A stretch of DNA of 64,000 nucleotides. It comes from Patescibacteria group bacterium. Lineage in GTDB: Bacteria > Patescibacteriota > Patescibacteriia > Patescibacteriales > WJLG01. How positions within the stretch are numbered: the first letter of the stretch is position 1; the number at the start of each line of letters is the position of its first letter. The notes under the pieces were generated by a model. That model was not told the origin of the DNA. It did not search any database and was given only the letters and a program-made list of their open reading frames with translations. A program made the translations under genes and the position numbers. Positions 4,831-59,474 of this stretch are shown here, one piece after another. Location: positions 66,501-130,500 of the forward strand of contig JAQTUZ010000003.1 in assembly GCA_028707065.1 (NCBI GenBank), written 5' to 3'.

Positions 4831-4881
4831 AACACACCCCGTCCCGCCGAGGCGGCGGTCCACCCCTCTCGAGAGGGGAAT
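4831..4881. repeat. GC-rich palindromic element, family A, intergenic copy
   Basis: aacacaccccgtcccgccgaggcggcggtccacccctctcgagaggggaat is nearly the reverse complement of 59369-59419. It ends 3 nt from the histidine kinase stop codon. Confidence 0.85.
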
Positions 4882-40263: not shown

Positions 40264-40277
40264 ATTTATTTTACAAG

Positions 40278-40348
40278 CTCGGGAGCTTGGATTCGAACCA
40301 AGATTATCGCGTCCAGAGCGCGACGTCTTACCTTTGGACGACTCCCGA
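40278..40348 (-). tRNA. tRNA-Gln (anticodon CUG)
   Basis: Hand-folded cloverleaf. Acceptor TCGGGAG/CTCCCGA, D arm GTC-CAAAGGTAA-GAC, anticodon arm TCGCG-CTCTGGA-CGCGA, T arm CTTGG-TTCGAAT-CCAAG. No encoded CCA. Confidence 0.9.
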
Positions 40349-40366
40349 AAAATATAATCAATATTT

Positions 40367-41092
40367 TTAGTATTTTCTAAACTTTAACAAATTAATGATC
40401 GCTTCAACTTCCGCTTTCCTTGAAATTTGCACCACATTTTCGCCTTTGTGCGGATGGAAACCTAATCCGCGCAAAAGAAAATAAACAATTCTTAAAAGCG
40501 ATTTATTGCAATTTTTGAAAAAAAATTTATAAGTATAGGTTGGGGCATGAACGCAATATGATCCCTCGGCCTCATAAAGTCCTCTTAAAAATCTTATCTT
40601 ATAATCTTCACGGGGTAAAACCCAACCTGGTATTTTAAAAACGATGCCCTTCTTAGGGCCGACGGGAATCTGCAATCTTTTGCTTATAAACTTTTCATAA
40701 ATAGTGACTGTGGTACAATTTGAATGGCTCTTTTTGCCAACATGAGACTTCCTATAAAAGACGCTTTCAACTAAAAAGGCGACTCTCTTTATCAATCCCT
40801 GGTTATTGCTGTTCAAAGAAATTCTCAACACTTCCGTTCTTTGAAGGGCGCCTAAATAACCATCACCCAAAACCATACCTATCAATTCCGCCAAATCGCC
40901 GTTCCTTTCCAGCTCCGGATAATGCGAACGAATTAAACCGTTCTTTTTCGCTTTTTCCCTCCATTTAAAAAAATTGTCTATTTTTTTAACCTTTAACGTA
41001 TTGGAAATTTTCAAAACAGAAGGATGCGTGTATTTAGTTTTCCCCTTATTCCAACTTGATTTCATATGCTTTAAATATAACATGAAAATCAA
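40367..41092 (-). CDS. free-standing LAGLIDADG homing endonuclease (two-motif type)
   Basis: 241 aa. Motif 1 LAELIGMVLGDGYL and motif 2 FLRGLYEAEGSY. It begins 19 nt upstream of tRNA-Gln. Confidence 0.8.
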   Translation of the reverse strand: MIFMLYLKHMKSSWNKGKTKYTHPSVLKISNTLKVKKIDNFFKWREKAKKNGLIRSHYPELERNGDLAELIGMVLGDGYLGALQRTEVLRISLNSNNQGLIKRVAFLVESVFYRKSHVGKKSHSNCTTVTIYEKFISKRLQIPVGPKKGIVFKIPGWVLPREDYKIRFLRGLYEAEGSYCVHAPTYTYKFFFKNCNKSLLRIVYFLLRGLGFHPHKGENVVQISRKAEVEAIINLLKFRKY

Positions 41093-41239: not shown

Positions 41240-42871
41240 TTATCCCACTATTTTCCCCCCGAAAGTTTTCAAGAGATCAGACATCATATCATTCCCCTTC
41301 TCATTTTCCGGCGGCAGTTCATCAGCCGGAACTTCGAGCTCGATATCATTTTCCGGCGCAGCAACTTTATTGCCCGCTTCAGCAACTTCCATATTTTCAT
41401 CGATCACCGCTTCAATAATTAATTGTGTGCCGTAAACTTCGCGCAGCACATTCTGCACGATCTCTTTCATCTTGGCTTCATTGATGCGGTCTTTATGGAA
41501 CTTGTATTTAAAGGCCAGACAAAGCTTATTACCGTGGAGATCCCGCGGCTGGCAAAGATGCAGGATGAACGACAGGGAATGATTGTATTTTTTTATCTTG
41601 GCCAAGACTTCGCTCCAGCGGGACATGATCTTTTCCTGATCAGGAACCGCGCCGCCCGAAAATTTAATCGGCTCTCCAGAATCAATTTTTTTTTCATTTT
41701 CAGGACCGGCGCTGGCCGTCCGACTTTTCGCCGCTCCTTCGACAGCCGCGCTAACGGCCGCCTTTGCCGGTGATACTTTTTCCAGGCACAATTCAGCGAT
41801 TGCCAATTCTACCGGCAATTGGATGATAAAGCTGTTTTTCATCTCCGCTTTCGCCGCAATCATTTTTTCCAAGATCGCGATCAAATATCCGATCTCTAAA
41901 TTTTTCTTCAGATCATTGATCTTAATTTCAAAACTCTCGCCGATATCAAGGCCAAGGCGTTCGCCGAGGCTTGGATTGATCTTGGACAATAAAATTTTCC
42001 GCAAAATTTCCACGAAGTCCCCGACGAACTTTTCCGGATCAACGCCGTCGTCGATGAATTTATTGATCAAAGCGATGGCGCCGGAGGCATCCTTCTTGAT
42101 TAAAAATTCCAACAATTTGATAATTTCGGCAATGTCCGATCGGGGTATCACCAAATCCGCTTCGGCGCGGGTGATCTCTTTGCCCGAGATCGAAACCAAT
42201 TGGCCCAAAAGGCTTTCGGCATCGCGCATATGGCCCTCGGCCTGGCGGGCGATGGCTTCCAAGATTTCACGATCCGCCTTGATCCCCTCCTGCTTAATGA
42301 TATAAGATAGTTTTTTAACCGTATCCTCGATGCTGATGCGGCGGAAATCAAAGCGTTCGCAGCGCGAGATGATCGTGGCCGGAACCTTATGGATTTCCGT
42401 CGTGCAGAGAATAAAAATTACGTGCGCCGGCGGCTCTTCGATCAATTTTAACAGCGCGTTAAAGGCCGAGATGGAAAGCATATGCACTTCGTCGATGATA
42501 AAAACTTTATATTTATATTTGCTTGGCGTAACGCGGGCGGAAGCGATGATATTTTCCCGCACATTATCCACGCCGGTATGCGAAGCCGCGTCGATCTCCA
42601 CGATATCCAGACTGCGGCCGGCTATAATTTCCAAACAGGACGAACATTTATCGCAAGGCTCGAACTCCCCTTCTTTGCGATTTAGACAATTCACCGCTTT
42701 TGCCATCAAGCGGGCAAAAGTCGTCTTGCCGACGGCTCTAGGACCGCAAAAAAGATAGGCATGGGCGATCTTGCCCGTGCCGATCTCGTTTTGCAGAGTA
42801 ATTTTGATATGATTCTGCCCCACCGCTTCCTTAAAAGTCTGGGGACGATATTTTCTATACAGCGTTGCCAT
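41240..42871 (-). CDS. dnaX: DNA polymerase III subunit gamma/tau
   Basis: 543 aa. YRPQTF, GPRAVGKTT Walker A, Zn module CDKCSSC, DEVHML, and the SRC motif (IISRCERF). Confidence 0.93.
   Translation of the reverse strand: MATLYRKYRPQTFKEAVGQNHIKITLQNEIGTGKIAHAYLFCGPRAVGKTTFARLMAKAVNCLNRKEGEFEPCDKCSSCLEIIAGRSLDIVEIDAASHTGVDNVRENIIASARVTPSKYKYKVFIIDEVHMLSISAFNALLKLIEEPPAHVIFILCTTEIHKVPATIISRCERFDFRRISIEDTVKKLSYIIKQEGIKADREILEAIARQAEGHMRDAESLLGQLVSISGKEITRAEADLVIPRSDIAEIIKLLEFLIKKDASGAIALINKFIDDGVDPEKFVGDFVEILRKILLSKINPSLGERLGLDIGESFEIKINDLKKNLEIGYLIAILEKMIAAKAEMKNSFIIQLPVELAIAELCLEKVSPAKAAVSAAVEGAAKSRTASAGPENEKKIDSGEPIKFSGGAVPDQEKIMSRWSEVLAKIKKYNHSLSFILHLCQPRDLHGNKLCLAFKYKFHKDRINEAKMKEIVQNVLREVYGTQLIIEAVIDENMEVAEAGNKVAAPENDIELEVPADELPPENEKGNDMMSDLLKTFGGKIVG
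41686..41694 (-). promoter_or_regulatory. A9 run (A AAA AAA heptamer in the zero frame) in dnaX: candidate recoding/slippage site
   Basis: Codons 393-396 are GAA AAA AAA ATT. The -1 frame reads AAT TGA immediately after the run. Confidence 0.45.
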
Positions 42872-42973: not shown

Positions 42974-44041
42974 CTATTTACTCTTAATAACATTATCTAC
43001 CGCTCCCCAGGCGCTGTCGCCGGCGATCGGAACGAGCAAGACAACCTTGTCGCCCTGAATGCCTTTGTAATAAGTGATGCTCGCCGTGATGACGCGGAAC
43101 TTTTTATGTTCAGCCTTAACCAGATAATTCCCGTTGGCGTCTTTTTCCAGTTTGCCGATCAAGCGTTTTCTTTCCACCGGCTTGGTTTGTTTATAAATAA
43201 AAGTGCCGCGGTCCGTAATCGTCAATTTTAGCATATCGCCTTCCACTAATTTTGATTTGGAAGCGTAGTTGGCCGGGACGCTGTATTCTTTGCCGTCCGG
43301 ACCGATCATATTTTCGCCGTTAAAAACCCCTTCGATAACTTTGCCGCCTTCTTCTTCGTCAGCGATCAAGCCGTCGCTTATTTCACCAATACTGATGCGC
43401 TCTTCATCGCCATCATCAAGCAAACCGCCGAATAATGAAACCAAATTGACGGAACTTTTTTGAATATTTTCCAAAAGCTGTTTGGCTAAAATAATTTTTG
43501 ATTTGGAAACGATAACGCTGTCTTCACTGACATATTCTCCGTCGTCTCCATCGGAATCCTCTTCCAAATCTTCATCTTCATCCTCGCCCTCGTCTTCGGT
43601 CAGATCGCTTTCTTCAACTTCATCCTCGTCCGCCGTAGCTTTAGCGAAGGCGGGCTCGTCCGCCGTAGCCTTGGCGAAGGCGGATTCATCAGCTTCCATT
43701 TCTTCTTCCGCCTCATCTTCCTCCGCCTGCTCGTCGCTTTCCTCCTCATCGGCAATCAAAGGATTAACAGCGGCAGGAGCAAAGATCGGCGGCGATACTT
43801 TCAAATCATCCTCTTCATCCAAATCAAAATCCTCGTCCTCGTCCACCGTAGCTTTAGCGAAGGTGGGCTCGTCCGCCACAACCTCATCGGCGGAAACGGG
43901 CTCGTCCGCTTCTTCGTCTAAATCTTCTTCCAAATTTTCTTCAGCCTCGTTTAAAATTTCATCATTGTCGGTAAGGTCATCAGACCCTAAACCGGCATTA
44001 AAATTAGAAATTGGCATATTTTTGTTTTTATTTTCACCCAA
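42974..44041 (-). CDS. acidic repeat protein with conserved C-terminal beta-rich domain (355 aa)
   Basis: The N-terminal 190 aa or so are D/E-rich with three (P/S)(T/A)FAKAT(A/V)DE units. The C-terminal 150 aa are non-repetitive. No family recognised. Confidence 0.6.
   Translation of the reverse strand: MGENKNKNMPISNFNAGLGSDDLTDNDEILNEAEENLEEDLDEEADEPVSADEVVADEPTFAKATVDEDEDFDLDEEDDLKVSPPIFAPAAVNPLIADEEESDEQAEEDEAEEEMEADESAFAKATADEPAFAKATADEDEVEESDLTEDEGEDEDEDLEEDSDGDDGEYVSEDSVIVSKSKIILAKQLLENIQKSSVNLVSLFGGLLDDGDEERISIGEISDGLIADEEEGGKVIEGVFNGENMIGPDGKEYSVPANYASKSKLVEGDMLKLTITDRGTFIYKQTKPVERKRLIGKLEKDANGNYLVKAEHKKFRVITASITYYKGIQGDKVVLLVPIAGDSAWGAVDNVIKSK
43628..43870. repeat. three copies of a 30-nt GC-rich unit GTCCGCCGTAGC[TC]TT[AG]GCGAAGG[CT]GG[GA][CT]TC inside the acidic-protein gene
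   Basis: Units lie at 43628-43657, 43658-43687 and 43841-43870. Each encodes xFAKATxDE on the minus strand. A related core is in the intergenic element at 12690-12715. Confidence 0.8.
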
Positions 44042-59321: not shown

Positions 59322-59474
59322 ATAATACGAATACTACGAATTGTACGCGAATACTACAAACCATTGTTATTCCCCTCTCGAGAGGGGTGGCAGGCCGCCT
59401 CGGCCTGACGGGGTGTGTTATTCGATTCGTGGAGTTCGCGGTATTCGCGAATAATTCGTAGTATTCGCATTATA
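59322..59474. repeat. composite element: family C arms enclosing a family A core (59369-59419)
   Basis: tataatacgaatactacgaattgtacgcgaatactacaaacc...[attcccctctcgagaggggtggcaggccgcctcggcctgacggggtgtgtt]...attcgattcgtggagttcgcggtattcgcgaataattcgtagtattcgcattata. It abuts the start codon at 59321. Confidence 0.9.

Follow-up and report, generated by a model that had tools for sequence, protein, structure and literature searches.

A candidate transcriptional slippage tract in the dnaX linker of a Patescibacteria group bacterium

Does the dnaX gene of a Patescibacteria group bacterium give rise to one clamp-loader protein or to two? The question is raised by a 64,000-nucleotide stretch of assembly GCA_028707065.1 (contig JAQTUZ010000003.1, positions 66,501 to 130,500), referred to here as the window, in which the dnaX gene carries a run of nine A residues (A9) between the domains shared by the tau and gamma forms of DnaX and the domain specific to tau. 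An earlier note on this DNA, made from the letters alone, had pointed to the run as a possible recoding site and had likened it both to the ribosomal frameshift site of Escherichia coli dnaX and to the transcriptional slippage site of Thermus dnaX. Our analysis suggests that the window A9 is a Thermus-type slippage tract giving a gamma-like product that the cell uses, and we place the probability of this reading at about 55%.

The A9 run and its predicted products

The window dnaX coding sequence (41240..42871, minus strand) was identified from the list of open reading frames (ORFs) together with Pfam and NCBIfam matches, and its zero-frame product, tau, has 543 amino acids and a mass of 60.2 kDa. 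The clamp-loader domains I-III (residues 1-363; 41783..42871, minus strand; Pfam) are common to tau and to the predicted gamma-like product. They are followed by a linker (residues 364-411; 41639..41782, minus strand; alignment) that is hypervariable, with no consensus in an alignment of 40 homologues, and then by the tau-specific C-terminal domain (Pfam DnaX_C, residues 412-495; 41387..41638, minus strand), which would be missing from the gamma-like product. The Pfam matches within the shared part were DNA_pol3_delta2 (19-179), DNAX_ATPase_lid (186-229) and DNA_pol3_gamma3 (246-363), and the NCBIfam model dnaX_nterm scored 406 bits. The window protein was 100% identical to a protein from a Patescibacteria metagenome-assembled genome (MAG) named DNA polymerase III subunit gamma/tau. 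Domains I-III and the tau-specific C-terminal domain are encoded together in a single intact ORF. An assembly error at the run is unlikely, because with A9 tau remains readable over its whole length and the MAG protein at NCBI is identical.

Codons 393-396 of the gene read GAA AAA AAA ATT, which places A9 on the coding strand (gene nucleotides 1178-1186; 41686..41694, minus strand, seen as T9 on the plus strand), 30 codons past the point where the Pfam match to domain III ends. The run contains an in-phase heptamer, A AAA AAA, at 41687-41693. One added A or a -1 shift turns the reading into AAT TGA, that is, one sense codon and then a stop (TGA at 41682..41684, minus strand), and the predicted -1-frame product has 396 amino acids, a mass of 43.7 kDa and the C-terminus PENEKKN. 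The codons, the A9 and T9 coordinates, the AAT TGA and the 396-residue product had all been given in the earlier note, and the sequence bears out each of them. For mRNA with A8 or A11, the +1 frame would be read to a TAA at 41593..41595 (minus strand), giving a product of 425 amino acids with a 31-residue out-of-frame tail. We also considered other roles for these letters. A genetic code with UGA as a sense codon was ruled out, since TGA terminates 10 of the 43 long ORFs of the window and table 11 gives a coding density of 79%; on the plus strand, no terminator or promoter feature was predicted at the position of T9.

In the mechanism that we propose, the RNA:DNA hybrid would realign on nine A:T pairs during transcription, so that part of the mRNA would carry A10. 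Ribosomes on the A10 mRNA would read ...GAA AAA AAA AAT and stop at UGA, releasing a gamma-like DnaX of 396 residues in which the ATPase and collar domains I-III are complete and the tau C-terminal domain is gone, and unslipped mRNA would yield the 543-residue tau. The short protein would equally result from ribosomes slipping by -1 at the in-phase A AAA AAA, which could possibly contribute a small extra share. Slippage in this organism, its efficiency and the use of the short product are what we infer here from the sequence.

Long A runs in the window and in the dnaX family

To be weighed first is the possibility that the run is incidental. A lysine-rich, A-rich and unconstrained linker may have drifted to A9 through a synonymous AAG-to-AAA change and be tolerated there with no need of a second product, any slippage products being harmless, gamma-like and stopping at once. 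We consider this possible though rather doubtful. It draws some support from the window itself, where an in-phase heptamer followed by a close -1 stop is common and not distinctive: the 43 long ORFs contain 43 in-frame A_AAA_AAN heptamers, seven of which have a -1 stop within one codon. The hypervariability of the linker also speaks for it. What is distinctive about the dnaX site is the length of its run together with the placement in the linker. The 64-kb window contains 185 A or T runs of length 6, 75 of length 7, 21 of length 8 and one of length 9, and the dnaX A9 is the sole run of at least nine.

In the long ORFs of the window, A runs of at least nine were fewer than codon shuffling predicts (1 observed versus 4.4 expected), and the same depletion was seen in pooled relatives. 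A7 runs in these ORFs were about twice as frequent as the codon-shuffle expectation (33 versus 14.7) and A8 runs stood at 7 versus 6.4, with a sharp cut-off at 9. A sharp drop with run length has been taken as a sign of selection against slippage-prone lengths (Baranov et al. 2005, PMC1088944). The window genome avoids runs of at least nine, which is the pattern by which Baranov et al. recognize a slippage-prone polymerase.

We extended the comparison to 160 further dnaX loci among the matches listed, with 35-62% identity, mostly from Patescibacteria and some from Chloroflexota and others. Counts refer to 140 full-length dnaX genes, and the linker is defined in them by alignment to window residues 362-419. 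This analysis revealed 17 coding-strand A runs of at least nine in 31.2 kb of linker, compared with one in 150.8 kb of domains I-III and one in 47.4 kb of the C-terminal part (linker versus rest of the gene: odds ratio 54, P = 2.5e-13); the flanks of these genes had three A or T runs of this length in 341 kb. The length spectrum of linker A runs showed a shoulder at nine (127 runs of length 5, 58 of 6, 26 of 7, 14 of 8, 14 of 9 and three of 10), and no shoulder was present in domains I-III (23 runs of 8, one of 9).

An incidental origin predicts counts at the shuffle expectation and a smooth tail. When codons were shuffled inside each region, composition did predict about nine of the 17 linker runs (8.95 +/- 2.7). 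However, the runs peak at exactly nine, with 14 observed versus 4.8 +/- 2.0 expected, and no linker run reaches 11 or more, where 2.1 were expected. In the rest of the gene the same shuffling gave the opposite picture, with one run of at least nine observed versus 10.7 expected in domains I-III and one versus 6.8 in the C-terminal part. Composition leaves the remaining linker excess unexplained, and most of all the difference between linker and folded domains.

The stops next to these runs also depart from what an incidental origin predicts. A -1 stop lay within three codons at 13 of the 17 linker runs of at least nine, compared with 3.2 +/- 1.7 in shuffles (maximum 8 in 300 shuffles). This is four-fold above expectation and confined to runs of this length; the corresponding figures were 26% at random linker positions and 30% at linker runs of A6-8 (binomial P = 1.6e-5, Fisher P = 5.6e-4). 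The excess remained after two near-duplicate genes were removed. Stops in the +1 frame were likewise nearer at the 17 sites than in the null (median 7 versus 17, P = 0.0015).

The combination of run and stop was found in 16 of 140 genes, recurrent but patchy: the genes that carry runs are scattered, most having a nearest sampled relative without one. At least four other lineages (L014, L025, L047 and L096) share the window motif, GAA AAA AAA AYT followed by a -1 stop, for a product ending in ...EKKN, and the nearest sampled relatives of all four are without the run. Right where domain III ends, at codons 362-366 of their dnaX, three related genes of 62-65% GC (L144, L159 and L160) have retained an A10 run, GGY CAA AAA AAA AAT, that is followed at once by a TAG or TGA in the -1 frame, and the sequence downstream of it diverges. 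Retention of A10 and its stop in three diverged GC-rich genes is not what an incidental run predicts. Taken together, these data are good evidence, at the level of the class, that the dnaX linker contains a slippage device under selection.

Several observations weigh against the extension of this conclusion to the window gene. In a synonymous shuffle that keeps the protein, 12.0 +/- 2.5 linker runs of at least nine were expected and 14 of 300 shuffles reached 17; roughly half of the linker runs, or more, can be put down to composition. The +1-frame stop of the window gene, 31 codons past A9, is the farthest among the 17 family sites. The predicted 396-residue product had no exact match in a collection of 15 billion proteins; the predicted products with one added A from 13 genes, the window gene included, also had no exact match there, a result that is uninformative for rare MAGs.

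The close relatives weigh most directly on the window site. We compared the DNA of eight relatives whose proteins are 80-85% identical to the window DnaX. None of the eight had A9 at the homologous site, and none had a run with an adjacent -1 stop, which is found in the window only. The homologous codons were GAA AAA AAA TCA in L163 (A8, with the -1 stop 64 codons away), GAA AAG AAT AAT in L161, GGA AAG AGT TCC in L162, GTC AAG AAA ATT in L164, GAA AAG AAA GTT in L165, GAA AAT AAA ATT in L166, GCA AAA ATA ATT in L167 and ATG AAA AAG AGC in L168; a further relative, protein P0011, has EKKT at this place. The motif is A-rich in most of the eight, and the run is broken or substituted in all but two. 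Conservation in close relatives, whose absence the earlier note had named as grounds for refutation, is thus not seen at this level of identity, which speaks against a conserved site. As the homologous codons of the relatives are A-rich but interrupted or replaced, the window A9 could have arisen from an A-rich ancestral motif through one or two point changes, a pattern that an incidental run would also leave. The window site is evolutionarily young or unstable.

One of these relatives adds a further point against the slippage reading. The dnaX gene of L163 carries A9 within domain III, at codon 321 (gene nucleotides 963-971, CTA AAA AAA AAT), and this is the only A run of at least nine in domains I-III among the 140 genes. 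Slippage there would truncate the ATPase module, and a useful product is not expected; therefore A9 runs are sometimes tolerated in the clade of the window gene.

A separate observation concerns DnaX proteins that are naturally short. About 14 distant Patescibacteria-type loci (L060, L108, L111, L115, L117, L119, L121, L123, L132, L135, L136, L138, L142 and L149) encode a DnaX of 354-385 amino acids that ends a few residues past domain III, and a tau C-terminal domain was not seen in any downstream frame at these loci. The short DnaX of L119 matches dnaX_nterm with 436 bits.

Transcriptional slippage or ribosomal frameshifting

Programmed -1 ribosomal frameshifting of the E. coli type, with a shift on A AAA AAA and UGA one codon on, would give the same short protein. 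As in E. coli dnaX (PMC5009743), the window gene has an in-phase lysine heptamer, a -1 stop after one codon and a predicted product without the tau C-terminal domains. The E. coli site, however, is A AAA AAG with an upstream Shine-Dalgarno (SD) sequence and a downstream stem-loop, whereas the window heptamer is A AAA AAA within a 9-nucleotide run, and in E. coli A_AAA_AAA is reported to shift far less readily than A_AAA_AAG (PMC5009743).

The elements that stimulate the ribosome were not found at the window site. No SD-like GGAG, GAGG or AGGA was present within 20 nucleotides upstream of A9, and the 60 nucleotides downstream had no stem-loop and folded less stably than shuffled sequence (-11.2 kcal/mol versus a shuffle mean of -14.4, z +1.22). 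Rfam, searched with the entire gene at E <= 10, yielded four matches, all weak and unrelated, and not the dnaX frameshifting element. Nor was an upstream SD-like element or a downstream structure (mean z -0.16) found at the 17 family sites. The part of the earlier note that followed E. coli logic is therefore not supported at this site.

The same note had placed a palindrome about 55 nucleotides downstream of the run. The palindrome, TTCCTGATCAGGAA, is present at 41633-41646, and it starts 39 nucleotides past A9, closer than had been given. Ribosomal stimulators are typically spaced a few nucleotides from the slip site. We rejected TTCCTGATCAGGAA as a stimulator: it is too distant from the slip site, and the number of perfect 14-nucleotide palindromes in the window (seven seen versus 3.9 expected) is consistent with chance. 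Another perfect 14-nucleotide palindrome, CCCTCTCGAGAGGG, is present twice in the window, at 4864-4877 and 59373-59386.

The family data point in the same direction. A -1 stop within one codon was found at 65% of runs of at least nine, compared with 14-28% otherwise, and in-phase heptamers in runs of 6-8 had no excess of close -1 stops, in the linker or elsewhere. An effect that starts at nine is as expected for slippage by the polymerase rather than the ribosome. The closer +1-frame stops are easier to reconcile with mRNAs that gain or lose nucleotides than with ribosomal shifting in the -1 direction alone. Because the excess starts at nine, +1 stops are near and stimulators were not found, the sequence data favour Thermus-type transcriptional slippage over E. 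coli-type ribosomal frameshifting. We regard the latter as an improbable main route, and a minor ribosomal contribution may exist beside slippage.

The Thermus parallel drawn in the earlier note fared better, in part. Linker runs of A9-A10 with close out-of-frame stops recur in the gene family, as that parallel would have it; conservation of the window site does not support it. Transcriptional slippage at an A9 run has been described for the dnaX gene of Thermus thermophilus (Larsen et al. 2000, as cited in PMC1088944 and PMC5009743). The likeness lies in one ORF for tau, a sense-strand A9 past the clamp-loader domains, and an mRNA with a non-templated extra A that would lead to a nearby stop and to gamma, with ribosomal stimulators unneeded. 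The window gene differs from that of Thermus in that both alternative frames stop nearby in Thermus, whereas in the window only the -1 frame does so and the +1 frame runs 31 codons. It also differs in belonging to Patescibacteria, in having a site not conserved in close relatives and in being known here from sequence alone.

A shorter DnaX without the C-terminal part can also arise in another manner. In Caulobacter crescentus, gamma is a proteolysis product of tau, as cited in PMC5009743. That route, unlike the one proposed for the window gene, is post-translational and a slippery sequence is unneeded. By analogy, proteolysis is a possible route to a short DnaX in the close relatives that lack A9.

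Run-length alleles and the setting of the gene

The poly-A tracts of other lineages differ in length between otherwise matching genes. Locus L102, from a Patescibacteria contig of 860 kb with a DnaX 51% identical to the window protein, has A11 (L102:2623-2633). The zero frame of this allele ends in ...TKKKN at 382 amino acids, and the tau C-terminal domain goes on in the +1 frame. Exact-sequence look-ups in public assemblies found the A11 form of the lineage on at least 24 contigs of up to 860 kb, listed in 56 index blocks, and an A10 form encoding an intact tau of 498 amino acids on two contigs. The genes of L169 (A10, L169:1435-1444) and L171 (A11, L171:1835-1845) differ over 1497 nucleotides in this one A only. 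Of the two alleles of the L102 lineage, A11, whose zero frame encodes only the short form, is the one commonly assembled. A similar pair was found for Alistipes putredinis: the A11 version of L144, of 366 amino acids, is RefSeq WP_411327462.1 from this species (95 contigs), and both A10 and A11 versions of its dnaX are present in public assemblies.

Two-ORF dnaX genes with A10 tracts, in which tau needs recoding, have been described in other phyla (Antonov et al. 2013, PMC3711429), and the sequence of the L102 lineage shows this arrangement, here in Patescibacteria. The window gene resembles the two-ORF genes in having a poly-A tract at the gamma/tau junction, where a single A can reverse the frame relation. 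Unlike them, it is a single intact ORF and has no zero-frame stop straight after the tract, the two-ORF state being found in the L102 lineage (A11) and in Alistipes putredinis assemblies. Tau is described as essential in the bacteria covered by one study (10.1101/2022.11.10.516041). If it is also essential in the L102 lineage, the A11 allele would be viable only with efficient slippage.

These alleles bear on a last explanation, that the tract is hypermutable in DNA and that replication slippage from A9 to A8 or A10 switches cells between tau and truncated alleles: the otherwise identical A10 and A11 alleles of the L102 lineage and of Alistipes putredinis are in its favour, but we consider it very unlikely, since, tau being essential as described in that study, slippage would have to restore the frame for a truncated allele to be viable, so that the explanation presupposes transcriptional slippage instead of replacing it, and since the window gene is on record in its A9 form only.

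The mechanism proposed for the window gene is already known, and the window dnaX is, from its sequence, a plausible further case of it. Full-text searches of the available library found no paper in which dnaX recoding is connected to Patescibacteria or to the candidate phyla radiation. Tentatively, and with less confidence than for the slippage reading itself, we suggest a wider picture in which Patescibacteria dnaX genes repeatedly gain and lose linker runs of A9-A11, in which slippage on them sets the ratio of tau to gamma and is efficient enough to allow frame flips in the genome, and in which the window site is a young member; this would be the first evidence for tau and gamma in these reduced-genome bacteria. 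If the slippage reading is borne out, organisms whose genomes are very small and whose replication machinery is minimal would still make both the long and the short clamp-loader subunit by means of polymerase slippage. The short form would then be broadly useful and not peculiar to a few model species, and the patchy distribution of the sites would provide a natural series for the rise and loss of recoding sites. There is a practical side to the junction tracts as well. They lead to dnaX being annotated as truncated in some assemblies, as with the 366-residue Alistipes putredinis RefSeq protein and the 382-residue protein from the L102 lineage, each called in its short form. Slippage should be borne in mind when annotations of this kind are interpreted.

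We also noted the genes on either side of dnaX. Directly downstream in the window lies a LAGLIDADG_3-domain ORF (40367-41092, minus strand), followed by a tRNA-Gln(CTG) at 40277-40348. The downstream neighbour varies among the relatives: L161 and L167 have a serine recombinase at this place and L163 has a radical SAM gene, which points to a variable, mobile-element-prone spot downstream of dnaX (window 40277-41092). Upstream of dnaX, at 42974-44041, the window encodes a very acidic protein of 355 amino acids with repeated FAKATAD/FAKATVD segments and without a Pfam match, and the relatives have an unannotated gene of about 300-320 amino acids at the same place.

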